NCBI GenBank assembly: GCA_040388575.1
Contig: JAZKBO010000006.1
Span: forward strand, 43,250-107,249
Reading direction: 5' to 3'
Source of the DNA: Patescibacteria group bacterium
GTDB lineage: Bacteria; Patescibacteriota; Minisyncoccia; Phycocordibacterales; UBA9973
DNA: 64,000 nucleotides
The notes under the pieces: model-generated
What the model was told of the DNA's origin: nothing
Database searches by the model: none
The model's input: the letters and a program-made list of their open reading frames with translations, nothing else
Position numbers and translations under genes: made by a program
In this document: piece by piece, positions 5,870 to 63,351 of the stretch
Position numbering within the stretch: the first letter of the stretch is position 1
Layout: every line of letters starts with the position of its first letter

Positions 5870-6379
5870 TTAATGCTTATATAAAATTTTGAGCTTTTCC
5901 ATACCGCGATGAACTTGAACTGCGAGAGTATTCTTCGATAGTCCAGTTATCAGCGACATTTCTTTCAGGGTAAGCTCCTGCACATACTTCATCCGCATTA
6001 TTTTTCTATATGCTACGGGAAGTTGTTCGATTAAGATAATGGCGGACTTGCCGTCTAAAAGATTTATTAAATCACTGGTATTAACGACTTTTGGTTCAAA
6101 GCCTTTTTCGATAAGAGAGTCGAGCGATGTTGATTTTTTCTTTCTATATTCGTCAACAATTAAATTATTTAAAATGTGGTAGAGGAAGGCCTTCATTATA
6201 TCAATCTTTCCACCCTTCACTAGATAAACCCAGGTTTTCATGAAAGTTTGCTGGACCAAGTCTTCACCAGTTTCGTGGTTGCTCACCTTAAAATAAGCCC
6301 GAGCATTTAGACCCTTTTCAAAGTCCCCATGGGCTGACGCGAGCCGCGCCTGTAGCGCTATTGTTTGTTTAAGAGTCAT
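5870..6379 (-). CDS. ECF-type RNA polymerase sigma factor (sigma-70 family, regions 2 and 4).
   Basis: 169 aa. Region 2-like 'EDLVQQTFMKTWVYL' and a region 4 helix-turn-helix 'ELTLKEMSLITGLSKNTLAVQVHRGMEKLK'. Confidence 0.75.
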   Translation of the reverse strand: MTLKQTIALQARLASAHGDFEKGLNARAYFKVSNHETGEDLVQQTFMKTWVYLVKGGKIDIMKAFLYHILNNLIVDEYRKKKSTSLDSLIEKGFEPKVVNTSDLINLLDGKSAIILIEQLPVAYRKIMRMKYVQELTLKEMSLITGLSKNTLAVQVHRGMEKLKILYKH

Positions 6380-14610: not shown

Positions 14611-14626
14611 ATATACTATTTTACCA

Positions 14627-16885: not shown

Positions 16886-16890
16886 ATTTC

Positions 16891-19552: not shown

Positions 19553-19740
19553 TTACGGGCTTGCACCTCCCCCACCGCCTGAGCCACCGCCACCTTGCGA
19601 GCCGCCGCCGCCGGAGCCGCCATTATCTCCCTGATCACCAGAGCCGCCAGAGCCGCCGCCAGAGCCGCCGCCGCCTTGAGAACTACCGCCGCCAGAGCCG
19701 CCGCCAGATGCTCCACCCCCGCCACCGCGTGAGATAAAAT
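19553..19740 (-). repeat. GC-rich simple-sequence tract (GGN/GCC codon repeats) encoding the poly-Gly/Ser C-terminal tail of the giant protein.
   Basis: ggagccgccgcc / gccaccgcc repeats. Locally far higher GC than the surrounding gene. Confidence 0.6.
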
Positions 19741-38246: not shown

Positions 38247-39008
38247 ATGGTTATCATAAAAATAAAGGAAAATACGGAGGAGGTTTCAAAAGCAGAGATT
38301 CGGAAGCATTTCGATGTAACCAGCCACAAATGGTACTTTTCTGTCGTGGATGTGATAGGCGCACTCACTGATAGCTCCGATGCTCGTAATTACTGGAAAG
38401 TTCTAAAAAACCGTTTAAAGAAAAACCCAAATGACAAACTGCGTGAGTTGGTTACTAGATGTAACCAAGTGAAATTGAAGGCCAAAGATGGTAAAAGCTA
38501 CCTAACTGACGTCGCCGACTCTGAAACCCTTATAGATATAATAGAGAGTATCCCGAAGGCCTCGGTGGAAGCATTTAAGGTATTAATCGCAGATATTGAC
38601 GAAAGTGGCACAATATCGCCTACTGTAAATCCCCCTGCTGAAGCATCAAAAATTACTAAACCGGAACCTGCTTTGACTCCTCAAATTATAGAACCGGAAG
38701 AAGATTTAACTGAGCCCCAAACCGAAGCCCAGCTTCTAGTAGATGCATACCAAACTCCAACAACAATAATTATCAAAGCATTTATTGCCGGCGTTGCTCC
38801 TGACTTACTCAATATACATGTAGGTTCAAGAAAAATAATTATTCAAGGCCAAAGGAAGCCGGAACAGTTACAGGATAAATATTTATATAAAGAATTATAT
38901 TGGCCAACATTTTCACGCAGCATTACTCTCCCCTGCCCAGTTGAAAAAGATAATGTAAAAATAGACGAGTATGATGGACTCGTAACTATTGAACTTAGAA
39001 AAATTTAA
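38247..39008 (+). CDS. Fusion protein with an N-terminal Bro-N/DinD-like (phage antirepressor-type) domain and a C-terminal Hsp20/alpha-crystallin domain.
   Basis: 253 aa. N-terminus 'HKWYFSVVDVIGALTDSSDARNYWKVLKNRLKK…DGKSYLTDVADSETLIDIIESIPKASVEAFKVLIA' resembles Bro-N. C-terminus 'VDAYQTPTTIIIKAFIAGVAPDLLNIHVGSRKIIIQGQRK…YLYKELYWPTFSRSITLPCPVEKDNVKIDEYDGLVTIELRK' matches the alpha-crystallin domain pattern (…GER… F.R.F.LP..VD… A…NGVL.I.LPK). It is the only plus-strand gene inside the 55 kb minus-strand block. Confidence 0.6.
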   Translation: MVIIKIKENTEEVSKAEIRKHFDVTSHKWYFSVVDVIGALTDSSDARNYWKVLKNRLKKNPNDKLRELVTRCNQVKLKAKDGKSYLTDVADSETLIDIIESIPKASVEAFKVLIADIDESGTISPTVNPPAEASKITKPEPALTPQIIEPEEDLTEPQTEAQLLVDAYQTPTTIIIKAFIAGVAPDLLNIHVGSRKIIIQGQRKPEQLQDKYLYKELYWPTFSRSITLPCPVEKDNVKIDEYDGLVTIELRKI

Positions 39009-41277: not shown

Positions 41278-41300
41278 GTTAATAATATGAATTAATAATT

Positions 41301-43613: not shown

Positions 43614-43637
43614 TATAATTTATATTAATTAATAATT

Positions 43638-46259
43638 TTAGCTTCCAGTTCTAAACCAATTTCTGTTTAAAATTGAGAAGTCGATGGAGTTTACTATACC
43701 GTCGTGGTTAAGGTCAGCCGCAGAGTTGGAAGTAAACCAAACTGCACTCATGATGGACCAATCGAGAGAGTTTACGATGTTGTCATTATTTAAGTCGCCA
43801 GCGAGAGGTACTGTAATTGGGGATGGAGTTGGTGCGGGGGTTGGGGCCGGAGAAGGAGCAGGAGTTGAAGTGGGGGTAGTATTATTTGCGGACCAATTAT
43901 CCAGCCGAGTGATTTGATGAAACGCGCCATATATAAATATTCCTGGTTGGCCATTCGCAATATTCGAATCTGTAACTGTAGCTTGCAGCACACCATTCTT
44001 ATACGCAGTTAAAGTAGTGCCGACAACTTGTAACTTCATAACATCGCCTTGAGATATGGTGGAAAGATTTTGAACGAGCGTGCTGAATGTGCCATTTATT
44101 ACTTTATCAATTTTGCCTTTACCTGCATTATCAACAGAGTAAATATATGCTTTTCGTGAGTCTTGCCTGCCGGACGCTCGAACTATCACGCCAGGATCCT
44201 CACCATACGCTGGCACAGAAGCCACAGTAGCTTGAGAATATTGATCCGCGTTAAATGTATTCGCCGCCCAAACTGATTCAGTTTCATAAGTACTAATCAC
44301 GTCTTGATCCGCAGTGTTATTGATTATGTCAAAGCCACCAATCATTGTTGACCAGTTTGATCCTAAACTTGTCGCGTCAGCGCGATCGAAATTATCACTT
44401 ACTCCGCTACCTGGTACGGGCGTAGAAGAAATTGGATTTACAGGTGGCGCCGAAGGGCTAGGAGTTGAAGGAGACGGCGCGACTGGTGAAGGTTGCGGCG
44501 CTGTCGGTGGAGTGACAGAATTTGATCCGGTATTGAAAACATAAACTGCGTTCGCAATTACCCCGATGAGGCCGTCTCCACCTTTAAATGCGATCATAAT
44601 TTGATGCGCCGCAGGGTCAGTAATTGTACTAACTGGGTTGTGCGCATCAATCCCTTGATTTTTAACTCCCCCACCCGCACAAGAAGGACAACCGAAGCCT
44701 TTAACTAAAGTAGTCAGGTCCATTTCGGTATCGTATCTAACATTGTACGGTAAGCGGGTGCCCGCTATTACTTCCGCATATTGAGCTGGATCATAAACCT
44801 GTAAGCGGTAAGTTCCGCGGGAATAACTTGGGCTGCCGTGGAAATAACTTGAACCAAAGTATACTAGCCCGCCAGGAACTGGTGCGTGATTACCAGTACC
44901 ACTATCATAACCAGCGTTATGATAATCCACTCGGTTAGTACTTGGATCGACCGCATCAATAACAGCAAAAGATATATCATTACCGTTAGCAACGAAGCAA
45001 CCAGGTCCGTCCACACCTACAGTACAAGTTTTAACCCAAATCAAATCCCCCACATTCATATTATTGCCATCGTTAGTAGAAACTGAAGAAAGGTACATGG
45101 TACCGTTGGCGCCATTATTAGTAACAGAAGGCGCTGGGTTTGCTAAAATTGTCGGATTCGCCCAACCTTCCATTACTTCTGTCGGCACTACTACCCCACC
45201 TTTTATTCCATCATCATACCAGCCTATAGATCCAGCAGTGCCGAAAGTGTACCAGCCATGCCCCGCGTAAGGAGTCCAGCCTTCAGGATATGTAGTATTG
45301 GAATATTGATTGAACGACATTTGCGCTGGATAAGGTGGAGTTGGTGGTTGTGTTGGAGTACAACCATAAATTCCAGTAGAATTCGGAATGAAACAAGTAG
45401 GCCCAATACCATTAGCTGGATACTCTGCGAGCACTTTAAGGAGTGGAATTAAATTGTTTGTATGGGGTGCACATGGATTTGGTGTTGGTTGGGGGATAGC
45501 GATGAGTGTTGGTCCGTAACTATCTTGTGCAGCTTGCCCTAATGGACCCGCAACTCCCACCGCCCAATGCGCACCTGGTAAATATGTATTTGCAAAACTA
45601 GGAGGAATATTAACAGTAAGCCCTCCTGTATATAGAGTGTTACGATTATTAAGACCCCAACACCCTTGAACATTGAGCGTATGATTGGTACTATTTAATG
45701 TTGCAGCAGCAAAAGTATTACGGTAGCCGGAATTACTATATGTACCAGTCCAGTTCAAAACTAATTGGTTTATGGTGTCATCATATAACAAACCAAAGGC
45801 ACCAGTGGACGCATTACCATTGCCAGGAATATAATCCTGAGCTTCACTTACCGGAAAAGCACCCCAATCCCCACCCCAGCTTTCCATGTGGGCACGATTA
45901 GCACCAGCAAGAGATGTGTTACAAGGTGAAAGAGTTGGCTCTGGAAACTCCACTATGTGGCCTGTACCGTCATACATAAAGTAATGGCGGTTGCCATTTT
46001 CGTAACGCATGGTCATAGGGTAATAAGAAGTATAGCCTTGATACTGAACCCATGGAGTGATGAACATTCCAGCGCAGGTTAAGTCAGAGGTTTTAAGTAG
46101 GCTTGTTGCTGCCTCAGCTTGTTTAGGATTGTAAGTTAAACTAATTTGCCCAACCAAAAAAACAGTAACCAAAACAGCTACTGCTAAGAATATACTCCAA
46201 TGCACTTGATGATGCTTCGGATCCTGATGCCACTCGTAATACGTTTGTTCTATGCTCAT
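43638..46259 (-). CDS. Secreted dockerin-tagged protein, paralog family member 6, with an inserted concanavalin-A-like/LamG-like lectin-fold domain before the dockerin.
   Basis: 873 aa. 'MSIEQTYYEWHQDPKHHQVHWSIFLAVAVLVTVFLVGQISLTYNPKQAEAA'. Family core motifs present. Extra domain 'FDRADATSLGSNWSTMIGGFDIINNTAD…PGVIVRASGRQDSRKAYIYSVDNAGKGKIDKVINGTF…GVLQATVTDSNIANGQPGIFIYGAFHQITRLDNW' (about 43880..44430). C-terminal dockerin 'AGDLNNDNIVNSLDWSIMSAVWFTSNSAADLNHDGIVNSIDFSILNRNWF'. Confidence 0.7.
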   Translation of the reverse strand: MSIEQTYYEWHQDPKHHQVHWSIFLAVAVLVTVFLVGQISLTYNPKQAEAATSLLKTSDLTCAGMFITPWVQYQGYTSYYPMTMRYENGNRHYFMYDGTGHIVEFPEPTLSPCNTSLAGANRAHMESWGGDWGAFPVSEAQDYIPGNGNASTGAFGLLYDDTINQLVLNWTGTYSNSGYRNTFAAATLNSTNHTLNVQGCWGLNNRNTLYTGGLTVNIPPSFANTYLPGAHWAVGVAGPLGQAAQDSYGPTLIAIPQPTPNPCAPHTNNLIPLLKVLAEYPANGIGPTCFIPNSTGIYGCTPTQPPTPPYPAQMSFNQYSNTTYPEGWTPYAGHGWYTFGTAGSIGWYDDGIKGGVVVPTEVMEGWANPTILANPAPSVTNNGANGTMYLSSVSTNDGNNMNVGDLIWVKTCTVGVDGPGCFVANGNDISFAVIDAVDPSTNRVDYHNAGYDSGTGNHAPVPGGLVYFGSSYFHGSPSYSRGTYRLQVYDPAQYAEVIAGTRLPYNVRYDTEMDLTTLVKGFGCPSCAGGGVKNQGIDAHNPVSTITDPAAHQIMIAFKGGDGLIGVIANAVYVFNTGSNSVTPPTAPQPSPVAPSPSTPSPSAPPVNPISSTPVPGSGVSDNFDRADATSLGSNWSTMIGGFDIINNTADQDVISTYETESVWAANTFNADQYSQATVASVPAYGEDPGVIVRASGRQDSRKAYIYSVDNAGKGKIDKVINGTFSTLVQNLSTISQGDVMKLQVVGTTLTAYKNGVLQATVTDSNIANGQPGIFIYGAFHQITRLDNWSANNTTPTSTPAPSPAPTPAPTPSPITVPLAGDLNNDNIVNSLDWSIMSAVWFTSNSAADLNHDGIVNSIDFSILNRNWFRTGS

Positions 46260-46303
46260 GATTTTGCTACAAATTTCTCTTTAATAATAAAATTATAACA
46301 TTT

Positions 46304-49300
46304 TTATGGTGTTGGTGGTGGCTCTGGTGTGGGTTCTGGAGCGGGTGCTGGAGTAGGAGGGGGTGTAGGCGTCGATGCTATACAAGAACCGTCATCGACT
46401 GTGGCCGTTGGATCATAATTTGTTGCAGTGGAATCAGTGCAGCCAGAAACTGCTGTCGGAGCAGGAGGTGGAACTACACAAGAGCCGTCATCGACTGTGG
46501 CCGTTGGATCGTAGTTAGTTGCCGTTGCATCAGTACAGCCCGGAATTGAAGTTGGTGTAGGTGATGGACTTGGACTAGGAGATGGTGATGGAGAAGGAGC
46601 GGGGCTTGGAGCTGGAGCAGGCGCTGGTGGTGGAGTAGGAACATTTACTACAATTGTGCCATTAGTACTGTAACCAGTATCCTTCCCTACTACTAGATAG
46701 TGTACGATAGCTGATACATTGTCTCCATGGATATCAAAAGTTTTAATCTTAAAGCCAACATATTTCTGGTTTGAATCTTTCTTCCAAGAGAGTATTTGAG
46801 CAAATACTGGCTGGTCCGCTTCAGGTGTTAGCTGGATCGATGGCTTGCCAGTACCAAGGTCATAATCGAAGTCTACGTCCGCTTCGCCACTCGCGTCAGT
46901 TGCGATTGAACCAGCAATATTATTATTCTTGATAAAGATTGCCCCCAGTACTTGTGCATCACCGCGAGCATTAATACTAAATACTTCACTACCATTTGAT
47001 TTAACCACCACGAGGTCATCTGTTGAGTTCGAAGTTATAGCGTTTATATTTACTGCACCAGAATTTTGAACCAAGAAGCGGTCAGTGCCATCAGATTGTA
47101 ATTGCAACAAGTCACCTGAACCGTTTTGGTTGATGAGGAATGCAGTGGAGTCAGTATTGGCAATGAGTGAAGTAGTAGCAATTCTTTGCATGGTTACACT
47201 GCCGTCCGCTGCGATGTCAACCGTCGGATCATAATATGAAGTACGAGCGAATACCATTATCTTGTTGCCAGGAGTACCATCATAGTCCGCCAAAGCTTGA
47301 CCGATTATTACTCCAGGCCTGGTAGCTCGCATCGCCTCGCCCGGAGTACTCGAGGAAGTAAGCACATCACCTTTATGAATTGGACCGTTTTCTTCATTAA
47401 CTTTTACGAGTACACGGCCCACTAGCGCGACCGGCATAGGGTTGTCCGCCGCTTTGATGTTGTAACCAGTACTCGAGAAGTCCGCAGTATTGTCGGAAAT
47501 AATTCCGATTAGATTGCCTTGATATGGGGCTCCAGATTTTACTAACTGGGTAATCTGGCCCTTCACGATATTCCAATCCGCGGTTCCAGCAGAATCAGTA
47601 GCATAAGTATCAACTAGATTTGTGCCGATAGAAACCAAGTCGCCTACTTCTATTCCAGCTTCAACTGGGTACATTTCGGCATAGTCGGCACCCGCGGATG
47701 GGTCACAGTCTACTAGTTCATCATTGTTAGCTTTACCAGCGCCAGTGTGACATACCGCATGGGTAGTTTGCGTACCGGTAAAGGAGAGGAACAATTTTCC
47801 ATCTGCTTCGAAATGCGCTTTGATAGTATCCGTGGATTGGCTGTTGTTGGTAGTGTCAGATTCGATCTTAAATACAGTTTGGGTTGATGTTGATTCTTCC
47901 GTATTGATATAGATAGCATCGGCATTATCCGCATCTGCTATTTTTACTGTAAGCTCGCCAGTGTCATCAATGGTGAATTTAGAAGTAGCATTTTTTTGCA
48001 AGTCAACGAAGTTACCAGTGAATCCTCCAGAGCCAGATGCAAAATTCATAATGAGGCCTGTACCGGTGAAAGTAGAAGTATCGGTAGTAAAGTTCACCAA
48101 GTTTGCAGAAGTAATATCGTTGGAGTACGCACGGATTGCATTGCCTGATGTAGGATCGGAGCTATTATTGAGGTCCGCAAAGACTGCTGCAGGTGAAGCT
48201 ACTGCTCCCGCTTCTCCAGTTGTTTCTGCTTGGATACCGAAGGTCTTGCCGAAAGTAGCAATACCAGTATTTATTCCAGCGGTGTTGGTACCAGAGTAAG
48301 CTTGAACTTCTAGTCCGCGAACTGTGTTGATACAGTCTGTAGCCGAGCAGTCATTGTCGATCATTCTGATAAGTTGGCCTACATATGTAGCATCGATTCC
48401 TGAAGCAGAATTTATAGTATTGATAAATCTATTGCCGTACTGGAAGGTACCATCAGTAGTAGTGTTAGTCATAGAATAATTTCCGTAGAATCCAGCAATA
48501 GCGTTTGCTCCCGTTGCCAAAGCGCTGTTCAAACTTGCGTTAACGACAACTGGCCCACCGAAGTTTCCACCACCTGGGCCTACGTTTAAGGAATTTCCTA
48601 CATATAGATCGTTGTTGATGCGAGCACTATCAGTGACATTAAGCGAGCCTAACCCGGCCACCCCGATAGTAGCGCTCGCTGCGTCTACCCCCGCAATATC
48701 AAATGCGCGGAATTCATTTCCGGAAACTGTATCGAGGGCTGCATATAAGTATTTACCTGAAGCAAAGACTTCATTAACTCCGATAGAAACATCCACACCA
48801 CCAACAGCTGATGGTGAGGCTGTATTCGTGACATCCGCGATTCTAAGATCGTTGCCGGAAACTGTTGCAGCCCCGAGGTATGCATATTTACCGTAAACTG
48901 CTACCGAGTTAACATCTGCTCCTACTTCAAGCCCACCAATTTCCGAACCGATTGTTCCCGGATTACTAATATTGTATATCTGGAATTCATCCCCAGAGCC
49001 AGAATCCGTACCAATGTATGCAAAAGCACCGGAGACATATACTGAATTAACCTCTTTAGCAACATTCACACCGTTAGCTGCGGATGGATCGAATGGATTA
49101 GAAATGTCGTAGATAATAAATTCGCAACCAGTAACTGTGGTTCCTGAACATGTGCCGGATGAAGTATCGCGGCCAACATATGCATAAGTACCTTGGACAT
49201 ACACTGAGTTAGCTCGATATTGAGTGCCGGAGTCCACAAAGTCCTCCCCACCAACTGCCGCGGGGCTTGCCGGATTTGTTATGTCGTAAATTGAAAATTC

Positions 49301-52300
49301 ACAACCTGTAAGAGTTGTGCCAGAGCAAGTGCCGGAGTTAGTACCCTTTCCTACATACAGGAACTTACCAACAACGAATACTGAATTTACATCGGCGGCT
49401 GTATCGATGCCTCCGGTGAGAGTCGGAGTTGAAGGATTACTGATATCATAAATTCTCAAATCATTGGCGCTGTCCCCCGAGGATGCATAGCCGACATACG
49501 CGTACTTACCAGATACAAATATAGAGAGTGCATTAAAGTTATAGGAAATTCCACCGACTGAAGCTGGAATAGAAGCTGGATTATGAATATCGTAAATCTG
49601 GAATTCATTGCCGCTACCGCCATCGGAATTCACTCCCACATAAGCGTAGCTACCGTCCGCATAAACAGTGTTAGCATTCACGTTAGGTGTCGCTCCGGAA
49701 AGTGCAGTAGGGGTAGAGCTTGTACCGTAGTTAGAAAGTATTGTTCCATCGGAAACTGTTAAGCGCTGTGCAGGTGTTACTGTACCGAGCCCAACATAAT
49801 CATTTCCTAACACTGTCAGGCCGGCAGTGTTATCATTGTTCGCTACTTGGAACACTGTCTCAGCTGCACCGAGGTCTGCGGTACTAGTGCCGCCATCAGA
49901 TTTAGCTCCGACTATTTTAATTGCTGGAATGGTATCAGTCGGATTGGTTGAACCGATAACTCCACGGACTGACAACGCTTGTGCATCGGTGTCGGAAATT
50001 GCAGTAATCTGGGCGCCACCGGCTGTGGTAGAAAGTGAAGTTGCGTGGAGGAAGACATCGGTTTGCGCTAGACTAGTTAGACCATGAGCCACATCATCAT
50101 CCGAGAGCGCAAAAGTTGGGGTGTTTGTGGAATCGGAAATTTCTAAAGTATAATCTGGGGAACTGTCACCGAGACCAAGGAATTTTGTAGAGTTATCAAA
50201 GAAGAAATTCGCATTGTCTTGCTGCAATATTCCTGAAGCTCCTGCAAACAGCACCGAGCCTGCAGTCGGAGCAAACCACGTAGGTGCTCCAGTACCGCCA
50301 GAAATTGCAGCTTGGCCTGTGGTACCTGCAGCGGAAACTTCCGCAGAGTCAGAATCTGTCCACAGTAGTCCTCCGGATACTGCAGTTAGGTTCTTGTTAG
50401 TGCCACCGTTAGCTAGTGGTAACACTCCCGAAACTTCCGCAGTCGCAAGATCAACCGCGTTTGTAGTAGAACCCGAACCAATAAAAATGGACGCAGTAAG
50501 TGTATCGGAGATTTGAGAGTCAGTTAATCCAGTTATATCCGTAATATTTCCAGTTGTTATAACTGTACCAGTAGCATTAGGTAAGGTATAGGTCTTATCA
50601 GTACCAGTTAAATCAGCAGTAGTAATGATGCCGGCAAACCTTGCCGCGCCTCCGGCTTGTGACAATAATTTAATATCATCATCAGTAGACGTAGCAGAAC
50701 GGACAATTAATGCTGGAGTGCCAGCCGCTGCGGTAAATATATCTTGGGCGGAAGTGGTAAGAGAAGTTCCAGAAGCCACCCCAAGAGTTGGAGTAGTAAG
50801 TACTGGTGATGTTGAGAAGACTAAATTCGTGGAAGTTGTTCCGGTACTACCAGCGGCAGTGAATCCAGTAATATTATTAAAACAAGTTATAGTTGCCGAG
50901 GAACAGTTCGTGCCACCATTAGCAACAGCCAGTACTCCAGCAATTTCCGCAGTAGCTAGATCAACCGCATTAGTGGTGGAGCCGGAACCGATAAAGATCG
51001 AAGAGGTTAAAGTATCTGAAACTTCAGAATCAATAATGTCGTTGGCTTGGAAAGTTGTAGTGGAACCGAAGGCAACTGTACCGTTAAATGTTTTTGCTCC
51101 ACCAAATGTTTGAGTAGAGGCATTAATAATACCTGCATGAGTAGCATCTGCTGTAGAGATTGCTAATGTAATATCATCCGGCGTTGAAGCTCCTACTAGT
51201 GTCCAGGCAGTTCCAGCCACAGTAGTGGTGGAAGCTACGTCTAAGAAATTTGCATCTGCCGCACCCACACTATTGACTGTAATATTGTCGCCACTACCGC
51301 CGGAACATGTAGCCCACGCCAAAGTTCCGGAACCGTTGGAGGACAAACATTGAGTACCTGTGGAATCGACATTTGGTAGAGTCCACGTTACGTTCGTGCC
51401 TACAGTAGCCGGAGCTTGAAGAGCGACCCAGTTCGAGGAATCAGCATCAGCAAAGCGTAGGTCGCTTTGTGTATCCAAAGTAACATTGTTAGCAGCTTCT
51501 ATAGTGTCAGCAAAATAGTTCGCCCCTCCAGCGGAATAAATTCCGTAATTGGTACCAGCATTTGCAGCATTGGCATATACGGCATAGTTGGTGTCGGCAG
51601 TGCCAATAGTTGAGAAATACCCAGCATAATTCGTAGTAGCACCAGTTGTACCCAAGTCACTATTCGCAAGACTCTTAACTCCGTAAACAATAACACCATC
51701 TGTGGCGCCTCCGATGGTACCCGAGAATGAAGGAGAGGTTCGGATGCCTGTTAAGATAACATTGGCGGAACTATTGTTGGTGGAGCCAGAGAATGTTGGC
51801 GTTGATTCAAGACCATAAAGTTGTCCAGAGCTTCCCGCTGTGATGGCACTACTTTCAGTCGGCGAAGAAACAATACCGTCAAAACTAGTGCTTCCTCCGG
51901 AACTTAGTGCGCCGGAATAAGTAAGGTGAGAGTTAAGAGTTGTTATTGCCGTATTGGCTGTTGAGTTTGTGCCAGTTACATCTAATTCGTACGATGGACT
52001 CGCTGTACCGATGCCAACATTTCCAGATGCATCTACAACAAAAGCTGTACTGTCGGTAAGAGTTCCATCATCATTTACTCGTAGCGCTAATCCACTACCC
52101 GCCGTGGTGACATCAAGAGCCGCGCCAGTGTTGGCAGAAACTAACTGCTTAATAGCCAAAGCATCTGCTGAAGATGTACAAGTCCCCCCAAAACTTCCGG
52201 CAGTACAGGAAGTGTCGCTTATGCTAGCCACCGCACCAGTTATAGTAAGTGCAGTTGCCGCACCACCATTTATAGAACGTTCAGCATTCAATACATTTCC

Positions 52301-55300
52301 AGAGACTGTCACTCCAGCTCCTGTAGCGCCCAAATTATAAGAGGTGGCGTTATCCCACCAAACCTTTAATCCGCTTGCAGAAATATCTGTAGTATCTGGA
52401 GTACTTCTTGGCGAGAAAGTAATATTTCCTACGTTTTGAGTGCCAGTGGTACTGAGTGGATCACCCGTGATATTTAATATAGTTGAATCAGTATGTAATG
52501 TGAGACCACCAAGAAAACCTGCTCCCCAAATCACTCCACTATTAGCATAAAGATTACCCGCAGAATCTAGCTGTAACTTTGTTGTGCCACCATACTTTGC
52601 ATTAATTAAATTAGTACTAACTCCCGTTGTTGAAGTATTGGTAGTGTCAATATTTAAAATATCAAGACTGGTGTTTGTGTTTGATCCGCCAGTGTTAATT
52701 GTTGGTTTTATGTTTAATCCTGTAAAGTTTCTTGCATTTGCATCATTTTTAGTTAAAGAGAAAGTAAGCTTTTCTGCACCCACAGTGCCATTGGCGTCAG
52801 TGTTTAAGGTAAGCCCTGTCACATCCAACCTCGTCGCTGGTGCAGCATTGCCTATACCAAGATAATTATTCGTATCATCGAAAAAGAAATTAGCATTGTC
52901 TTGTGTAAGTTTTGTTCCATCAGAGAAGATTACAGAGCCTGCAGTGTAGGCACTGTTGTTGTTTGTACCACCATTTGCAATAGGAAGTATTCCAGTAACT
53001 TCAGAAGTTAAATCAACTGATGTTCCAAGAGTTGAAGCGACGGTGATAGTGTCTGTTGCACCACCAGTAGTAGTGATGCCTGCACCAGCTGCGATAGTTA
53101 ACGTATCACCTTGTGAAATTGTTTGGTTGGAGCCAGATGTCCCTGCTGCAGTGAAGAGTGTGCCCCCAGAAACTACACAAGTACTACATGTCAGTGTCAG
53201 TGTGCCGCCTAAAGATACTGCACCTCCACCTCCTAGTGGAGATGAAGTGTTGACAGTGATGGATGAATTTACAAGTTCAGCATTACCGACAGAGTTACCT
53301 GGAAGAACAACTTCTCCATCACCTGTGCCGTCAGTGGTTAAAGTGATTGCTGTTGTTGATGAGCCGCCGAGTCCGAGTGCTGCTGCACCTCCTGGGAGAA
53401 TAGTTAGTGCGGCAGTAGCATCATCATCAGCTGAAGTGATGGTGACGGTACCAGCATCATTTCTACCGAAAGTGAAAGTAGAGTTGGTGCCGTTAGAGAG
53501 TGTTTCGAGGTTAGCTAGAGTGAGAGCACCATTTAAAATTAGTGAGGCAAAGGTTGGACCAGAGGCAGTGGTCAAGTTCTGGCCGGTGTTGAAGGCGAGT
53601 TGGGTGTCGGTAATGGAGTCAGCGGTTACACCTACGGTAATAGTATCTGTGGCACTACCAGTAGTGGTGATAGAAGTGCCAGCAGCAATGGTCAGAGTAT
53701 CACCTTGTGAAATTGTTTGGTTCGAGCCCGAAGTTCCTGCTGCAGTGAAGAGTGTCCCGCCAGTAGCAATACAAGTAGAACAAGTGATGTCTCCAAGTGC
53801 AGAGACAGAGATTACTCCGGAACCAGAAACTGCAACTGTACCGGAAGCATTTGGAATAGTAATTGTTTTATCAGATGCAGTTGGATCAGTAACTTTTAGG
53901 AAAGTTTCAATAGTGTCTGCAGTGGCTCCTTCGAATACTAATCCAGAAACACCGAATACTTCTCGATCAGCTGTTAAGGCCACGTCTCCGGAAGTAGCTT
54001 GGGATTCGTCTAAGGATAGTGAGAGTGATGCAGCGTTAGAGCCAGCAGATCCACCGGTAAGTCCGGTGAGTGCTGCCGTTGCAGCATTGGCGACGTAGTT
54101 AGCAGTGAGGACTGATGCGGTAAGAGTGTCGGAAATTTGAGAATCAGTGAGTGCGTTACAACCGGCAATAATACCAGAAGAATTTTTACATAATATAGTA
54201 GTGTTGTCTGTAGTGCCGAGAGTTGCGGGAGCAACGGTTCCATCAACAGTTAAATTCAACTTTCCTGCTCCAGAGTTTGTAAGTGCTAGGGTTGTGTCTG
54301 AACTATCTACAAAGTCCATAGTGTAAGTTCCAGCAGCAGTATGTGAAAGGCTAGTGTCGTTAGCAGCAATAACCAAGGCGTTAGACCCAGAGTCGAGTGT
54401 TAAGGCACTTGTTGTGGAAGATACCGTAACTGCGCCGGCACCAGTATATGATTGACCGGAGGCGATGGTGACAGTGCCGGAAGAGTTGACTATAAGTTTA
54501 CCGTTATTGATATCAAGCAAGCCTGCAGGTGTGGTGTCGCCATCGATTCCAACATTTCCGGAAGCATCTACTGTTAAAGCTGTAGTGTCAGTAAGGGTAC
54601 CGTCGTCGTTGACGCGAAGTGCAAGTCCGGTACCAGCGCTAGTTACATTAAGTGCCGCGCCAGTATTGGAAGTGTAACTTTGAGTAAGGTCTAAAACATC
54701 CGCGCTAGAAGTACAGCTTCCCCCCGACACTGCCGAGCAAGTATCAGTAAGTTTTGCCAAAGCTCCGGTAACAGTTATTGTTCCCCCGCCGCCAAATCCA
54801 GTAAGAGCTCGAGTAACCAATAAATTATTACCTGAAATGGTGCTGCTCCCAACATCAGTATCATTTAGGTTTAATTCCAACATATTAGCTGTAGTAACAT
54901 TGGCGGTACTAACGATGTTAAAAGATGAACCCGTAGTGTTGGCCGGTCTAACATCTGTGAGACCGTTAGCAGCAATATTGAATCTTGAAGTTCCCCCTGA
55001 AGCTACTTTAAGCAAATTGATTGTATCACCTGTCACATCCGTGTTAACTGTATCGATATTCAAAGCAGTTATAGTTTTATTGGAGCCACCAGGAGTATTA
55101 ATGGTAGGTTTAATTTGTAAACCGGTGTATGACTCAATAGACGAATCGGTGGTTGTAATCGAGCCGACAAAGTTAGCTGCTAGAATTTGTCCAGAAGAAA
55201 ATGAGTTGTCTAGAGTAATACCTGTGACATCGAGCCGGGTTGCTGGCGCCGCATTGCCTAATCCAAAATAATTATTTGTGTCATCCCAGAAGAAATTGGC

Positions 55301-58300
55301 ATTGTCCTGCGTATAAACTCCAGAAGTTCCTGCGAAGACAACGGAACCTGCAGTGAATGCGCCCGCACCTGTGCCGCCATTCCCTACTCCTAGCGTACCG
55401 GCCACTTCTGCTGTGCCTAGATCCACCGCATCCGTAGAAGTTCCGGAACCTTTAAAAATAGAAGCGGTTAGAGTATCCGAAACTTCAGAATCAACTATGT
55501 CGTTAGCTTGGAAAGTTGTAGTGGAACCGAAGGCAACGGTGCCATTAAACGTTTTTGCACCACCAAATGTTTGAGTGCCAGCAGTAACCCCTCCTGGATT
55601 GGATCCGTCAGCTGGTTGGAGAGTTAATACTTGACCTGAAAGAGAGGCTCCACTTGAGTTAGGTGAAGAACCAAATGCTCCGAGAGTTACATCGCCTGTA
55701 TTTGTTCCAGAAGTAGTTCCAGAGAAGTTAGAAAATGTTCCAGTGCCGGTACATGCAAAGTTACCATTTGAGTTAGTAACCGTACAACCAGTGGAGCCTG
55801 AGCCACCACCTAGGAGGATGTTACCTGTGCCCGTATTGTTTAAGTTAAGTGCTCCAGCTCCTTGCGCATCAATAGATAGAGCAACATCCGTATCATCTCC
55901 TGTTGCTTTTAATGCTAGACCTCCTGCAGTAGCAGCGTTTGTGATAGTTAATTGGTTGACTGCAGAAGCAACAGAATCAAAAATTAGCATTTCATTACCA
56001 CTAGAATCTGCAATGTAACCTAAGTCAGCAAATTTGGGAGTAGTTAGAGTTTTACCAGAGAGCGTTTCACTGCCTGCTAGTGTTGCCAATGTCCCTGTAG
56101 TTGGAAGAGTTACTCCTGTAGTTCCAGAAACTGTTAGTGTGGTCGCAAAGTTTCCAGAGATGGTGAGAGTGGATGCTGCGTTGTTGGCTATTCCGGTGCC
56201 GCCGTGGTCGGCGCCCAATGTTCCTGCAATTTCTGCAGTCGCCAAATCAACAGCGTTAGTAGTGGAACCGGAACCAATGAAGATGGAAGAAGTTAGAGTG
56301 TCGGAAACTTCCGAATCCACGATGTCATTAGCTTGGAAAGTGGTAGTGGAACCGAAGGCGACAGTACCGTTGAATGTTTTAGCACCAGCAAATGTTTGAG
56401 TACCGGTAGTCACGGATCCAGCCTCTGTTGCGGAAGCATTGCCGATAGCCAAAGTTATGTCATCTGGAGTCGAAGCACCCACTAAAGTCCAAGTTGTACT
56501 GGCGCTTGTACCAGAGCCTGCAACATCTAGGAAATTTGCATCGGCTGCGGCAGAAGAGTTAACTGAGATGCTATCACCTGAACTTCCGCAACTCTGCCAT
56601 TCAAAATCGCCGCCGGTAGATTCATAGGTTAAACAAAATTCATCAGTTGGAGAGTTTACCGCCTTGAGCATTGCTTCAGTAACTTTATCGGAGCCAATAG
56701 TTAAAGCTGTTGCGCCAGAGGAATTAAGCGTGCCCGTAACATCCCCAGTGAAAGTATCGCCAGAGAGTGACACGGTACCAGAGCGATTCGGGAAAGTATA
56801 AGTTTTATCTGTAGAAGAAAGATCCGCTACATCAAAAATTCCAAATAGTGTTGGCGTTGATCCATTTTCTAAAATTTTAAGTCCAGCCGAAGAATTATCT
56901 AAAACAATATTAAAAGCTCCTGTTTGATCCCAATCAGCAGTAAGTGGCCCTAGATCAAAAGTTACAGTATCTGTAGCACTCCCGGTAGTTGTTATGCCAT
57001 TACCAGTAGCGAGAGTAACTGTGTCGCCATCGGTAATAGTTTGGGAACTACCCAAGCTACCAGTCAAAGTGAAAGATGACATTCCACCAGAACCTGAACC
57101 ACAAGTGAAACCTGTAGCCCCGATTACTCCGTTATTATCAGTTTGCAAACATTGGGTTCCTCCGCCGGCGAGCGAATCAACTTTCAACTTTGCATTACCT
57201 GCACCGGAGTTAGCTAACGCTAGAATTGTATCAGAGCTATCCTTTAGGTCCTCTGTATAAGTACCCGCCGCGATTCGCTGGAGTGTTGTATCCCCCGCTG
57301 CGATTGTCAAAATATTATTTCCAGAGTCCAGTGTAAGTGTATTCGTAGTGGAAGAAAGAGTTACAGCTCCCAACCCGGTGTAAGATTGACCCGCGGCGAT
57401 AGTGGCAGTTCCGGAAGAGTTAACAGTAAAAACTTCTGCACCAACATCGAACAGCGCAGCTGGAGTATCGTCGCCACCGATGCCGACATTACCCGATGCA
57501 TCTACTACAAACGCAGTACTGTCAGTGAAAGTGCCATCATCATTCACTCGAAGAGCGAGGCCACCATTAGTAGTGGCTGTAGTGATGTTAAGGGCCGAGC
57601 CTGAGTTTTGGGTAATTGCTTGGTTAACTTCCAGAACGTTCGCGGTAGAAATACATGTGCCAACACCATTCGTACATGTGTTATCAGTAAATGAACCCAC
57701 AGCGCCCGATACCGTAATGGTATCAAAGGTTCCAGCACCAATAGAACGATTAGCGTTAATTATTTTACCCGATACAGTCGCAGAGCCCGTTCCTATTATA
57801 GATAAAGTTGAACCGAAAGTTGCTTCCAATACATCGGCTGAAATATTAGTAGTATCAGGCGGGGCAAAAGAACCTAGGGCAAATGAAACCAAATCGTTGG
57901 CTGTTGTGGTAAGTAGTGTATTTGAAGTCACACTTAAAAAGGTAGCGTCAGGACCCGCAGCTAAAATGGAAGTTGCTCCAGTAGATGCTACGTCAAAATT
58001 TGTGAAGTCAATCGCTGCAGTACCACCTTGAAGTGTATTATTGTTGAGTTGAACATTCGCACCAAAGTCAGCCCCGATACCACTGAAAGTTAATTTATTT
58101 ACTCCAGTAGAAGAATTAACTACTACAGTATTGGAAGTATCTTCAAAATTAAATGTAAGGTCTTCATCGGAGTCCGATGATCCATCACCAATGCCTAGAA
58201 GTGTAAGATCGCCATCACCATCTCCAGAAATTTTTACTCCAGCGGCACCGAGATTAAAGTCATCAGCAAATGTTGGTGAGTCGTTAAATACCGCAAGCCC

Positions 58301-61300
58301 TGTTCCAGTTTCGTCGGAGAGTGAAGTTGCAAGTTGTGAAGATGAGATTGATCCTGAAGCTGTACCATAAAGTGTCCCAGAAGTTGGCAGAGTGACGGAG
58401 GTGGTACCTGAAACTGTAAGTGTAGTACCGAAAGCACCGCTAATGGTGAGAGTGGAAGCTGCATTGTTAGCTACTCCTGTACCTCCATTACCAGGAGGTA
58501 GTATCCCCGTCACTTCCGAAGTTAAATCAACACTCGTTCCAAGAGTTGAAGCGACGGTGATGGTATCAGTTGCTCCACCAGTAGTAGTGATGCCCGCTCC
58601 TGCTGCGATAGTTAAAGTATCTCCTTGGGAAATAGTTTGGTTGGAGCCAGATGTTCCTGCTGCAGTGAAGAGTGTGCCCCCAGAAACTACACAAGTACTA
58701 CATGTCAGTGTCAGTGTGCCGCCTAAAGATACTGCACCTCCACCTCCTAGTGGAGATGAAGTGTTGACAGTGATGGATGAATTTACAAGTTCAGCATTAC
58801 CGACAGAGTTACCTGGAAGAACAACTTCTCCATCACCTGTGCCGTCAGTGGTTAAAGTGATTGCTGTTGTTGATGAGCCGCCGAGTCCGAGTGCTGCTGC
58901 ACCTCCTGGGAGAATAGTTAGTGCGGCAGTAGCATCATCATCAGCTGAAGTGATGGTGACGGTACCAGCATCATTTCTACCGAAAGTGAATGTAGAGTTA
59001 GTACCGTTAGAAAGTGTTTCGAGGTTAGCTAGAGTCAGTGCACCATTTAAAATTAGTGAGGCAAAGGTTGGACCAGAGGCAGTAGTTAAGTTCTGGCCAG
59101 TGTTGAAGGCGAGTTGGGTGTCGCCAATACAGTCAGCGGTTACTGCAATATCATTTGCATTAGAAGTGATACAAGTTCCAGCGCCTACATCCACAGTGAC
59201 TACTCCAACTGTGCCACCCCCAGTTAGGCCATTACCAGCAGTGACTCCAGTAGTAGCGTTGGATGCCACGTTAGCGGTATCAATTAATGTTCCAGATCTT
59301 CCATCAAGAAGTGATAGTTCTGTTGGTGAAATCAAAGTCCCATTCACATCGATAGCTTGTTCCCATCCTGAACCAATATGAAGTGCAGTTTCAGTAACTA
59401 CTGCAGCAGCAGATGAAAGGTTTGCAATATCAATTCCATAAAGTGTATCCGCATCCCCTGTGGTTGCAGATGTTGCTGCAACTTTAATTGCAGATATGGT
59501 ATCAGCATTAGCATCGTTACCTAAAGTTAGGTTGTAAGTTTCTTCCGAGCCATCATCAGTGATGGTGTTGGTGTGAGTTTGGAGTCCAGTCCAGGCGAAG
59601 GCAAATGCTTGGTTCACTGCCACGTCATCAGCATTCACAGTGATACCAGTACCAGCTCCCACTGCTACAGTTGCCGTATCAGAAGCCACTGAAGAAGTTA
59701 ATCCTCCACCCCCAGCGACAGTGAGAGTATCTCCGGAAACAATTGTACTTGATCCAGAGTCACCAGCTAATGTAAAGATTGTGGTACCAGTGGTCACACA
59801 AGTCGAACAAGTAAGAGTTAGAGTACCACCGAGTGATACTGCACCTCCACCACCAAGTGGTGAAGAAGTGTTGACAGTGAGTGATGAGTTTACGAGTTCA
59901 GCATTACCGACAGAGTTACCTGGAAGAACAACTTCTCCATCACCTGTGCCGTCAGTGGTTAAAGTGATTGCTGTTGTTGATGAGCCGCCGAGTCCGAGTG
60001 CTGCTGCACCTCCTGGGAGAATAGTTAGTGCGGCAGTAGCATCATCATCAGCTGAAGTGATGGTGACGGTACCAGCATCATTTCTACCGAAAGTGAAAGT
60101 AGAGTTGGTGCCGTTAGAGAGTGTTTCGAGGTTAGCTAGAGTGAGAGCACCATTTAAAATTAGTGAGGCAAAGGTTGGACCAGAGGCAGTGGTCAAGTTC
60201 TGGCCGGTGTTGAAGGCGAGTTGGGTGTCGGTAATGGAGTCAGCGGTTACACCTACGGTAATAGTATCTGTGGCACTACCAGTAGTGGTGATAGAAGTGC
60301 CAGCAGCAATGGTCAGAGTATCACCTTGTGAAATTGTTTGGTTCGAGCCCGAAGTTCCTGCTGCAGTGAAGAGTGTCCCGCCAGTAGCAATACAAGTAGA
60401 ACAAGTGATGTCTCCAAGTGCAGAGACAGAGATTACTCCGGAGCCAGAAACTGCAACTGTACCGGAAGCATTTGGAATAGTAATTGTTTTGTCAGATGCA
60501 GTTGGGTCAGTAACTTTTAGGAAAGTTTCGATGGTATCAGCGGTGGACCCCTCAAACACTAATCCAGAAACACCGAATACTTCTCGATCAGCTGTTAAGG
60601 CCACATCTCCAGAAGTAGCTTGGGATTCATCGAGTGATAGTGAGAGTGATGCAGCGTTAGAGCCTGCACTTCCGCCGGCAAGACCAGTGAGTGCTGAAGT
60701 TGCAGCGTTGGCTACGTAGTTAGCCGTGAGGACGGAGGCGGTGAGGGTGTCGGAGATTTCAGAATCAATTAAGTCGTTAGCTTGGAAGGTGGTCGTGGAA
60801 CCGAAGGCGACTGTGCCGTTAAATGTTTTTGCACCACCAAATGTTTGGGTGCCGGTAGTCACTGCTCCGGCTTCTGTTGCGGAAGCGTTACCGATAGCTA
60901 AAGTTATATCGTCAGGATTAGAAACTGTGTTTAGAGTCCAGGTTGTAGAAGTACTGGTACCTGTTCCGGCAACATTAAGGAAATTCGCATCAGTTGCTGC
61001 AGAAGAGTTCACGGTAATGCTGTCGCCTGAGGTCCCGCATGTTTGCCATTCGAAATCACCACCAGTGGATTCGTAAGTTAAACAAAATTCATCAGTCGGA
61101 GAGTTTACTGCTTTGAGCATTGACTCAGTAACTTTATCCGCCCCAATGGTAGTAGTGATTGCAGTTGTTCCGCTACCGGAAACATCTCCTGAAAGAGTGA
61201 TAGTTTGGTTACCGGAAATATAAGCAGCGGCATTATTTTCTGCTTGAGTCCAAACGTCATAGCACCCCTCGGAGGCTCCCGAAGCATCCACACCAAGTGG

Positions 61301-62437
61301 TGCATTTCCTGCCGAACAATTTGCACCATTAGCTGCTAACGCTGTTGCCGTTGTTGCGTTTCCAACGAGTGCGCCGGTGAAGGTAGAAGCAGCTACTGTG
61401 TTAAAAGTTACATTGGAACTAGTAGTCAAATTCTGCCCAGTATTAAAGGCTAGTTGGGTATCACCTATAGAATCCGCAACAATTCCAAGGGTTACAGCAG
61501 CACTTTCGGATCCTGATCCAGTTACCGCGATGGTACTAGAGCCGGAATCTGCAATGGTTGCAACGTAATTTCCGGTAGTGTCAGCACCAAGGGCAATTAA
61601 ATTGTTTAATGTACTCGCTCCAGTGCCACCGGCCGCAACATCGATAATGCCGTCAGTGTTGGAATCATAAACTGAAGTGAGCATGTCCCCAGTTCCTGAA
61701 ATTGTTTGCCATGATGGTAAGTTTCCACCGGAAACTATCAGCGCCTGACCTGGAGAGCCGATTCCTAATCGCGCAAAATTTCCGCTGCTATCTCTGTAAA
61801 ATAAATCTCCAGTAGCATCGCTGCCAAGTGTTAAGGAAAGTCCACCAGCATTCACAGCGCCAGCTAAATTTAAATCACCGCCCGTGAGTACCGGGATTTC
61901 ACTTCCAGTTGGAGTTTGGGATACGGAAAATCCGCCAACTGTTCCGGAATTTATTGCAAAACCAGAAGAAACAATTTGAGGTCGAGGGCTAAGCGTCTCA
62001 AAACTTACGCCGGAACATGAGGATGCCACTTGTGCCGCAACTTCTACATTTACATACACCGTGTCATTGTCCTGAAAATTATAATCGAGCACATCTGCAC
62101 CCGAACCTATTGAGGCATCGAAAACTCCATCGCGAGTTAGAATCGTCATAGTAGAGGGCGTTCCTGATGGCCAAAGTTTGGTTCCCGAGCCCGCGGTAGG
62201 GTTGTCATAAATTGAAAATCTGTAACAGTAATTAGTGCCACTGGTACCGCCCAGGAGTGTACCCGAAGAATTTAAAAGCCTACCTTGAAAATTAATAACT
62301 TTTGGCACCCCAGCCGCAGAGAAGGCGCTAAGTGCCGGAAACAAAGAAAAAATGATCAAAATTGCTGCAAAAAAACGCACAAAAAAGAGGCTAATTTTCT
62401 GTAAATTTTTGACGAGTTTGTGAGTTAGAAAATTCAT
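46304..62437 (-). CDS. Giant secreted surface protein (5377 aa). Thr/Gly/Ser-rich fibre or beta-helix repeats with kb-scale near-identical internal duplications, a C-terminal LVIVD-repeat beta-propeller, an unassigned about 150-aa beta domain, and a PT/PA-rich tail with two Cys-bracketed 21-aa motifs.
   Basis: Single 16.1 kb ORF. Signal/anchor '[43 protein letters not shown]'. The roughly 330-aa block '[35 protein letters not shown]…[60 protein letters not shown]…' recurs 3 times almost identically. LVIVD blades such as '[28 protein letters not shown]' and '[31 protein letters not shown]' span about 48700..49700. The C-terminus carries '[21 protein letters not shown]' twice. Confidence 0.8.
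48700..49700 (-). other. LVIVD-repeat beta-propeller region (about 7 blades) within the 5377-aa protein (approximate coordinates).
   Basis: Repeated ~45-aa units of the form N(S/A)V(Y/F)V.G.YAY(V/L)G…G…(E/D)(F/L).I(Y/A)D(I/V)(S/T)NP, characteristic of LVIVD (PF08309) repeats. Confidence 0.6.
53150..54098. repeat. Roughly 0.95 kb near-identical intragenic direct repeat (copy 1 of 3) inside the 5377-aa gene (approximate boundaries).
   Basis: Plus-strand antisense ORFs 52956..54098 and 59640..60719 translate to near-identical strings over more than 300 aa (…PPPPSG(D/E)EVLTV(M/S)[126 protein letters not shown]…). This implies over 95% nucleotide identity. Confidence 0.6.
58670..59250. repeat. 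Roughly 0.6 kb near-identical intragenic repeat (copy 2 of 3; shorter, diverges after …[12 protein letters not shown]).
   Basis: Antisense ORF 58392..59381 shares the same about 190-aa string as the ORFs covering copies 1 and 3. Confidence 0.55.
59780..60719. repeat. Roughly 0.95 kb near-identical intragenic repeat (copy 3 of 3).
   Basis: See copy 1. Even the nested small antisense ORFs 53717..53899 and 60338..60520 are identical in 58 of 60 aa. Confidence 0.6.
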
Positions 62438-62574
62438 TTATCTAATTCTCAAATTATACCATATATATAAAGGCTAAAGTCACGTTTTTGGCACCTGAAA
62501 TTTGAGGCTAATTTAGTACCAAAATCTTGGTCAATTTTTGACTACTTTTTTTAGCCTAAATTTCAATATTTTTC

Positions 62575-63351
62575 TTACTCTAAAATTTCGAAATCTTGAG
62601 CAGTGTCTAAGGAATTAGTTTCACGGTTTCTACGTCTAATAAAGTAACTAGCAATGGATCCAATAACGATAAGGATAATCAAGATGGTTACAAAAAGTAA
62701 CCGACTGATTTTATGATTACTTTCTTGCGTCTGTACTTTTTCTATGGGCTGAATTAATGGTGTCGCTTCAGTTTTTTGGATAGTTGTCATAGTAGATAAT
62801 TTAGCTGGAGGTGTTGCAACTTGAGTAATCTTTGGCTTTACAATTAGGTAGTTTTCCACACCCGCGGTTGGCAATGATGCAACCCAGGCACCATTTATTT
62901 TCTGCAAAGAATTACCATCACCTGCCCCGCCTTGGCTGGATTGATATGTAAATTGATCTAAAATATTTTCAGAATTTTTTATAATTTCTTTCAATGCTAA
63001 GGGCTCACCAGTATTACTTAATGAAAAAGTTGAGTCGAAAATAGTACCGGAATAACTCGGCCAATCACTTTTAAATTTTGCACTGTCGGCTACTATTACC
63101 GCGTAGCCTTCAGCGGGTATTTTATTTATGCCTTGCACTAAAGTAAGCTTATGATTTGTATTGGCTTCAAATAATTTTATGTTTGTCATATCGATTTCTT
63201 GATCGGAATTATTGAATATCTCGATCCACTCCCGGCCAGTATCGCTGCCAGTTTTAAGGTTGTACATTATTTCATTAATTTGGAGTGCTGCAAAAGCAAA
63301 ATAGCTCGGGCAAAATAAAAGAATCATCAGCATGACAATTACTTTTTTCAT
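62575..63351 (-). CDS. Lamin-tail-domain (LTD) surface protein with a signal peptide and a C-terminal TM anchor.
   Basis: 258 aa. Signal 'MKKVIVMLMILLFCPSYFAFAA'. LTD signature 'LQINEIMYNLKTGSDTGREWIEIFNNSDQEIDMTNIKL' (cf. the I.E.mynP.G.D..EWIElyN pattern). C-terminal TM 'LLFVTILIILIVIGSIASYFI' followed by RRRNR. Confidence 0.65.
   Translation of the reverse strand: MKKVIVMLMILLFCPSYFAFAALQINEIMYNLKTGSDTGREWIEIFNNSDQEIDMTNIKLFEANTNHKLTLVQGINKIPAEGYAVIVADSAKFKSDWPSYSGTIFDSTFSLSNTGEPLALKEIIKNSENILDQFTYQSSQGGAGDGNSLQKINGAWVASLPTAGVENYLIVKPKITQVATPPAKLSTMTTIQKTEATPLIQPIEKVQTQESNHKISRLLFVTILIILIVIGSIASYFIRRRNRETNSLDTAQDFEILE

Follow-up and report, generated by a model that had tools for sequence, protein, structure and literature searches.

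The 64,000-nucleotide (nt) stretch of DNA analyzed here, which we call the window, comes from a Patescibacteria group bacterium (assembly GCA_040388575.1, contig JAZKBO010000006.1, positions 43,250 to 107,249 of the forward strand) and holds two giant genes, giant1 and giant2, both on the minus strand. This work concerns giant2, an open reading frame (ORF) at 46304..62437 that starts with ATG and runs through 5377 codons with zero internal stops. An earlier note on this DNA had described it as an ORF of 5377 amino acids (aa), rich in Thr, Gly, and Ser, with a modular, fibre-like C-terminus, and our analysis bears out this general picture: Thr (15.7%), Gly (12.6%), Ala (11.6%), and Ser (10.8%) together account for 50.7% of the residues. 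We found that the conserved C-terminal part of giant2 contains a domain homologous to D4, the intramolecular chaperone of the phage phi29 pre-neck appendage protein gp12. We favor, with moderate confidence, the reading that giant2 is a giant Sec-exported surface fibre of the candidate phyla radiation (CPR, Patescibacteria) that carries a gp12-D4-homologous and putatively self-cleaving assembly module.

The only hydrophobic segment of giant2 spans aa 11-45, at the N-terminus (Kyte-Doolittle scan, window 19). This is consistent with a Sec signal peptide or a signal anchor, with the remainder of the protein being extracellular; as judged by eye, cleavage of a signal peptide would be predicted after AFSA. 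At the C-terminal end, the same scan and a reading of the sequence revealed no hydrophobic anchor or sorting signal. All 48 Cys residues of the protein fall into 24 sequence-adjacent pairs, with spacings of 3 to 70 residues, which suggests local disulfide loops along the whole of giant2. Such pairing fits an exported, extracellular protein. Examples of these pairs are C4371/C4379 and C4430/C4438, in propeller blades 3 and 4, and C4896/C4911, ahead of the predicted cleavage site described below.

From N- to C-terminus, giant2 consists of a signal peptide or anchor, a head, a shaft of ~4000 aa, a putative seven-blade LVIVD propeller, and a conserved domain at aa 4640-4917. These are followed by a beta-tulip domain (a gp12 D4 homologue of the Peptidase_G2 lineage), a neck, a beta-sandwich that is possibly H-type-lectin-like, and a Pro/Thr tail with two disulfide-type loops (Table 1). 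In a Pfam scan of the whole protein, LVIVD was the sole family matched. NCBIfam and PHROGs gave nothing significant against whole giant2, and neither did a PDB sequence search with its last 1300 aa.

Table 1. Parts of giant2, with their positions in the protein and in the window
Feature	Residues (aa)	Window position	Strand	Basis or remark
Signal peptide or signal anchor	1-41	62315..62437	-	Sole hydrophobic segment of giant2
Conserved N-terminal head	42-260	61658..62314	-	121 relatives; named ones all CPR/Patescibacteria
T/G/A/S-rich repetitive shaft	261-4253	49679..61657	-	Self-comparison, DNA repeats
Seven LVIVD repeats, putative 7-bladed beta-propeller	4254-4599	48641..49678	-	Pfam PF08309, aligned units, blade hidden Markov model (HMM)
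Conserved domain without family assignment	4640-4917	47687..48520	-	About 40 CPR relatives
D4918-Y-A-E4921, predicted autoproteolytic boundary A4917/D4918	4918-4921	47675..47686	-	Equivalent to phi29 gp12 S691/D692-F-A-E695
gp12-D4-like beta-tulip (decoration-protein-like) domain, putative intramolecular chaperone	4918-5079	47201..47686	-	
Conserved neck (contains FSINARGD)	5080-5165	46943..47200	-	Conserved in 16+ relatives
Terminal beta-sandwich, weakly H-type-lectin-like	~5166-5256	46670..46942	-	
Pro/Thr/Ala/Ser-rich tail	5267-5377	46307..46639	-	Read from sequence
Cys-bracketed loop 1, 20 residues	5301-5320	46478..46537	-	
Cys-bracketed loop 2, 20 residues	5333-5352	46382..46441	-	

A gp12-D4-like domain near the C-terminus

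BLAST comparison of giant2 with its homologues revealed a conserved C-terminal module at aa ~4640-5270; most relatives cover 4640-5070, and a subset also covers 5070-5270. Inside this module, at aa ~4915-5060, lies the ~150-aa beta domain that had been singled out in the earlier note. In an alignment of 28 proteins over aa 4880-5080, the invariant residues were D4918, E4921, G4978, G5007, R5008, G5023, D5024, S5029, G5033, G5046, and A5048. The first two belong to a D-Y-A-E motif whose Asp and Glu were both invariant in two alignments (28/28 and 23/23 relatives), and the sequence around this motif (DPSAGA4917/D4918YAE4921MYPVEAG) matches the maturation site of phi29 gp12 (GGNTWS691/D692FAE695YFESLDG, as translated from the phage record), such that A4917/D4918-Y-A-E4921-M-Y of giant2 stands against S691/D692-F-A-E695-Y-F of gp12. 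Alignment of the family profile with gp12 by hhalign gave an E value of 1.3e-3, and placed DYAE on DFAE and GIISDN on GVISET.

An AlphaFold2 (AF2) model of aa 4880-5290, computed with a 23-sequence alignment as input, reached predicted local distance difference test (pLDDT) values of 85-96 over most of aa 4919-5079, and most of aa ~5129-5254 was also modelled with confidence. The pLDDT leaps from ~54 to 91 exactly at the DYAE motif, and because model confidence leaps there we place the motif at a domain boundary, as in gp12. As modelled, the domain that follows has the beta-tulip fold of the gp12 C-terminal fragment, whose crystallized form comprises 163 aa (residues 692-854). Fold comparison of the model included Foldseek and BFVD searches, and at E<=1e-3 the latter yielded 58 matches to viral proteins; among the best-ranked ones that have a name are collagen-repeat phage fibre proteins, a tail protein, algal giant-virus proteins, and one called 'preneck appendage protein'.

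Pfam searches of the 28 aligned members gave nine matches to XM1_gp53_minor_capsid, five to Phage_cement_2, and three to Peptidase_G2 (best E 5.3e-7), the family of gp12 D4. The relative P0056, which is 35% identical to giant2 over 292 aa, scored 29.7 bits against Peptidase_G2 (PF11962; cut-off 25) when its domain was searched in isolation, and 24.4 bits when the entire protein was used. Its match covers profile positions 37-101 and includes the D-Y-A-E motif, and phi29 gp12 itself matches positions 10-228 of the same profile. Peptidase_S74 (PF13884), the endosialidase-type chaperone, was absent from the Pfam hits of giant2 and of the relatives scanned.

The domains of giant2 and gp12 (D4, PF11962 Peptidase_G2; PDB 3gqh) resemble each other in that both start with x/D-[FY]-A-E-[YM]-[FY] and both lie downstream of a fibre or spike body. 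They differ in several respects. Identity between them is ~22%, and giant2 itself, unlike its relative, falls below Pfam detection; D4 is the end of gp12, whereas 298 aa more follow in giant2; and giant2 relatives often carry two to three tandem copies. Moreover, giant2 is a 5377-aa cellular fibre with a signal peptide and not a virion component. The fold is also common to trimeric phage cement and decoration proteins (PF23982 XM1_gp53_minor_capsid and PF09956 Phage_cement_2; for example HFTV1 8qsy, Sf11 9ocb, and XM1 7kmx). These, however, are small stand-alone capsid proteins without the cleavage motif, whereas the giant2 domain is embedded in a fibre and has the D-x-A-E boundary.

In gp12, D4 is a tandem beta-tulip autochaperone that is required for trimerization; assembly fails without it, and that its sequence resembles those of 'some bacterial adhesion proteins' was noted earlier (10.1101/216911). 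The chaperone domain is missing from the final virion (PMC9863714), in which mature gp12 consists of residues 1-691 (PMC6542822). The resemblance to phage fibres proposed in the earlier note is therefore real homology, but to the assembly autochaperone gp12 D4 rather than to a receptor-binding tip. The proposal that this domain is the distal binding tip is not supported in that form, as its phi29 counterpart is an intramolecular chaperone that is absent from the mature spike, and the accompanying comparison with eukaryote-like adhesins was backed by no search. Because of the match to the phi29 tail-spike autochaperone, we propose that the domain probably helps to build the fibre and does not itself do the binding.

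This domain belongs to a very large family. With the 28-sequence profile as query, exhaustive HMMER searching recovered 28,632 cluster representatives (clusters at 50% identity) at E<=1e-3, 22,398 at E<=1e-10, and 3,096 at E<=1e-30, and the top 150 representatives were mostly 1000-5800 aa long. We scored module copies in 142 proteins, namely 141 top representatives and giant2. A D-x-[AGMS]-E motif was present in 256 of the 269 module copies, and a median of 259 residues followed the last copy. We found no explanation for tandem 'autochaperones' among these relatives (P0060-P0200).

Possible cleavage or a possible permanent trimer

If giant2 is assembled in the manner of gp12, the gp12-D4-like module would fold first after export and bring three chains into register. 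The trimerized module would then nucleate C-to-N folding of the fibre tip, after which Asp4918 and Glu4921 would cut the chain at A4917/D4918, in correspondence with the cut of gp12 at Ser691/Asp692. In gp12, Asp692 and Glu695 are reportedly the catalytic pair (MEROPS family G2), as attributed to Xiang et al. 2009. We infer trimerization and cleavage, as well as what becomes of the 460-aa C-terminal fragment, from the comparison with gp12.

Several observations weigh against this scenario. Neither the last 810 aa of giant2 nor the isolated domain gave a Pfam match to Peptidase_G2 even at E<=1, and a search of the PDB by sequence with the domain profile found nothing. Nor does the module have the placement expected of D4, as the last part of the protein immediately behind a trimeric beta-helical spike body: 298 residues lie downstream, which speaks against simple disposal, and they include a conserved, folded domain that cleavage would remove. 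Tandem copies of the module, of which there are two in 120/142 and three in 5/142 scored proteins, are unlike a disposable terminal chaperone, and the same fold occurs in trimeric cement proteins that do not cleave. The region upstream, which would have to be 'chaperoned', gave a pLDDT of 55 in an AF2 monomer model of aa 4596-4925, too low for a fold search, and hence no trimeric beta-helix is established there; a poor monomer model is expected of an intertwined trimer, yet it does not demonstrate one.

These points bring in the main rival, which comes close to the view taken in the earlier note and which we regard as possible but doubtful. It posits the same architecture with a beta-tulip that does not cleave and serves as a permanent trimerization knot, much like capsid cement, so that the lectin-like domain and the Cys loops would be retained as the true binding tip. 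A conserved folded domain and a tail downstream of the module are what such a knot would have, and the long stretch that typically follows the last copy, together with the two to three tandem copies in 125/142 scored proteins, agrees with it. A permanent knot accounts less well for an Asp and a Glu that match the gp12 maturation boundary and are invariant while nearly all of their surroundings vary, or for the position of this motif exactly at the step in pLDDT, a domain boundary as in gp12. Whether it cleaves or acts as a permanent knot, the beta domain would be an assembly module and not a binding surface.

Propeller, tip, and shaft of giant2

The LVIVD repeats that had been read from the sequence as about seven blades were confirmed by Pfam, with PF08309 scoring 62.6 bits against a cut-off of 20.2 (E 2.1e-17). 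The seven units, of about 45-60 aa each, align well with one another and are sufficient in number to close a propeller; a blade HMM built from them detected exactly seven in giant2. When ~141 top representatives of the gp12-D4-like module were surveyed with this HMM, ten had LVIVD-like blades upstream of the module, in numbers of 5-21 that correspond to one to three propellers. Seven tandem units above the Pfam threshold relate giant2 to the LVIVD-repeat cell-surface proteins (PF08309), from which it differs in that a 4-kaa shaft and a phage-type assembly module flank its propeller, a combination seen in 10/~141 relatives.

The domain at aa 4640-4917, ~270 aa in length, is strongly conserved and carries the motifs FGKTFG, PAAVFADL, and GNAIRAY, with two near-invariant Cys residues (Cys4896 and Cys4911) at its end, directly before the boundary. 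It had no relative in the PDB or Pfam, and Pfam searches of 26 homologues of this domain yielded scattered, chance-level matches only. Cleavage of the gp12 type would leave this domain as the mature C-terminal end of the fibre.

Downstream of the gp12-D4-like domain, the first part of the neck (aa ~5080-5128) has low pLDDT. The beta-sandwich that follows gave no Pfam match to the H-type lectin family (PF09458) in giant2, in which it differs from H-type lectins such as Helix pomatia agglutinin (2ccv), discoidin I, and SLL-2; relative P0055 gave a weak match of 20.2 bits, below the cut-off of 24. The Pro/Thr/Ala-rich tail with two Cys-bracketed motifs, also described in the earlier note, is present, and its two loops are identical in length and lie inside the Pro/Thr/Ala/Ser-rich segment. 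The motif is not specific to giant2, as the search in other genomes that the note had called for found it elsewhere. Relative P0009 ends with two copies of it, and many unrelated short metagenomic ORFs from diverse sources also contain it, mostly as tandem copies that lack a Pfam assignment (P0201-P0249); this survey covered at least 80 candidates, all <95 aa, and its distribution therefore refers to short ORFs. Carriers include a Flavobacteriales fragment and a transcript of the haptophyte Pleurochrysis, and in P0241 the motif stands directly before a lamin-tail domain (LTD). A literature search on the DDGSC motif found no relevant paper. The Cys motif is thus a widespread, uncharacterized mini-module.

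At the other end of the protein, none of the 121 relatives of the head region has a Pfam domain, and most of them are 'partial' proteins at contig ends. The shaft, of which both halves were searched, had no sequence match in Pfam, NCBIfam, PHROG, or the PDB. It contains internal duplications (aa 554-932 resembles 2761-3141, and aa 1097-1329 resembles 2939-3165, with 91-99.5% aa identity between copies), and at the DNA level its longest repeats measure 548 nt (exact) and 972 nt (at 94%), so that the copy number in the assembled sequence is provisional. Such repeats, together with the many N-terminal-region relatives that are 'partial' at contig ends, are what one would expect if the 16.1-kb ORF were in part an assembly product, with repeats collapsed, expanded, or mis-joined in the shaft and a true gene of another length or split. 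We consider this unlikely. The frame is open for 16.1 kb across every repeat, the ~6% divergence between repeat copies lets an assembler tell them apart, and relatives of 4-5.8 kaa occur. In addition, an independently assembled Logan contig from run SRR26324622 matches window 41638-48259 with 100% identity across 6622 nt, a stretch that comprises the C-terminal 1.9 kb of the giant2 ORF and the genes downstream. Because this separate assembly is identical, the C-terminal part of giant2 is reproducible, and the C-terminal module would be unaffected by an assembly error in the shaft.

Immediately before the gene (window 62438-62470, minus strand, inspected by eye), the sequence TGGTATAAT, whose end lies ~15 nt ahead of the giant2 ATG, resembles an extended -10 element, and no obvious Shine-Dalgarno sequence is visible, suggesting that the giant2 mRNA leader is very short.

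Gene neighborhood, host, and attachment

We found 59 homologues for the last 810 aa of giant2 and 121 for its first 260 aa. Those with names all belong to CPR/Patescibacteria lineages (Uhrbacteria, Doudnabacteria, Levybacteria, Paceibacterota, Woesebacteria, Nomurabacteria, and others), apart from two outliers by label, a homologue marked 'Dehalococcoidales' and a related locus in a 'Gammaproteobacteria' metagenome-assembled genome. Several relatives lie on contigs of 0.65-1.08 Mb, a size typical of CPR genomes. A search for related loci with the single giant2 protein recovered three.

The genes around giant2 encode dockerin, cohesin-like, LTD, HSP20, pyrimidine-biosynthesis, YchF, and sigma-factor proteins, and no phage structural genes were found among them. 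This bears on the possibility that giant2 is a tail-fibre gene of a phage, prophage, or tailocin and not a cellular surface protein. The homology of its fold and boundary motif to phage spike and fibre C-termini is what such a gene would show, but a protein of 5377 aa with an N-terminal signal or anchor, cellular neighbors, and relatives on contigs as large as those above argue against it. A PHROG search of giant2 likewise gave no significant match, with one hit at E 0.023 that lacked a qualifying stretch. Taken together, we regard it as very improbable that giant2 is a phage tail-fibre gene.

Each giant gene in the window is followed by three paralogous genes for proteins of ~750-880 aa, each of which begins with a hydrophobic segment near the N-terminus and carries a type I dockerin at the C-terminus, and three membrane-anchored cohesin-like proteins are encoded at window 7019-10516 (minus strand). 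The cohesin-dockerin set of this CPR locus as a whole occupies window 7019-10516, 10538-11602, 12133-19524, and 39019-46259, all on the minus strand. The six 750-880-aa proteins, three directly downstream of each giant gene, match Pfam type I dockerin at their C-termini and have in common an N-terminal domain of ~570 aa without Pfam match. A seventh dockerin candidate of 354 aa is named on the basis of BLAST, by 32-40% similarity to the dockerin ends of the six. We also considered giant2 as a scaffoldin or another cohesin-dockerin component and rejected this, since giant2 has no cohesin or dockerin Pfam match; phmmer searches with the three cohesin-like domains of the window gave no match in either giant, and these modules are confined to the neighboring genes.

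Similarly, giant1 (window 19553-37069, minus strand) was rejected as a paralogue of giant2: the two give low-complexity alignments only, at ~23% identity, their C-termini differ, and their tips are not paralogous. By eye, a region within aa ~5330-5838 of giant1 has the appearance of an F5/8 type C (discoidin-like) domain, and a Gly/Ser-rich tail closes the protein; giant1 lacks both the gp12-D4-like module and the Cys loops. Elsewhere in the window, a gene for an LTD-domain membrane protein lies immediately upstream of giant2 (62575-63351, minus strand). The two giant-gene clusters flank an HSP20/alpha-crystallin gene on the other strand (38247-39008, plus strand), whose small heat-shock domain makes up only the C-terminal third of a 253-aa ORF. 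Window 2001-6000 has a GC content of 0.50-0.55, compared with 0.38-0.47 in the rest of the window, and long overlapping ORFs occur on both strands around 3018-4912, in the pyrF/dihydroorotate dehydrogenase region.

As a giant, repetitive, mostly unannotated, and presumably attachment-related surface protein of a bacterium with a reduced genome, giant2 resembles the very large surface proteins reported from CPR, ultra-small, and predatory bacteria (10.1101/2023.11.21.568195; Vampirococcus, PMC8080830). The published giants were described with many transmembrane regions, SecA-like domains, or dockerin repeats (10.1101/2023.11.21.568195; PMC8080830), whereas in giant2 the one hydrophobic segment lies at the N-terminus, dockerin and cohesin are absent, and the C-terminal module is gp12-D4-like.

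Large CPR surface proteins are almost entirely unannotated, and our analysis places the conserved C-terminal module of giant2, along with tens of thousands of related clusters, in the lineage of a phage tail-spike autochaperone. Fibres with a C-terminal intramolecular chaperone are known; what is notable here is that the chaperone-like module occurs in a giant CPR surface protein, that it is not terminal and is frequently present in tandem, and that its family is so large. The assignment offers an annotation route for a very large family that Pfam misses in giant2, and a testable model of assembly, with C-terminal trimer nucleation and cleavage at A/DYAE, for which it provides a precise mutagenesis target.

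Attachment to host cells is considered the way of life of CPR bacteria (PMC8080830). For a putatively exported surface fibre with an assembly module of this kind, the search for the host-binding element is redirected from the gp12-D4-like domain to other parts of the protein, and host or substrate binding is most plausibly sited in the propeller, in the aa 4640-4917 domain, or in the small lectin-like domain at aa ~5166-5256. A broader reading, which we put forward tentatively, is that the module, taken as aa 4880-5079, represents a very large branch of the self-cleaving gp12 autochaperones (at least 28,632 clusters at 50% identity), and that it may serve CPR bacteria in assembling and then proteolytically processing their giant host-attachment fibres, frequently as tandem copies that precede a lectin-like tip. 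Cleavage, on this reading, would release or unmask a trimeric lectin/propeller tip rather than discard a chaperone. If true, this would constitute a maturation step for episymbiont attachment that is borrowed from, or shared with, phage tail spikes.

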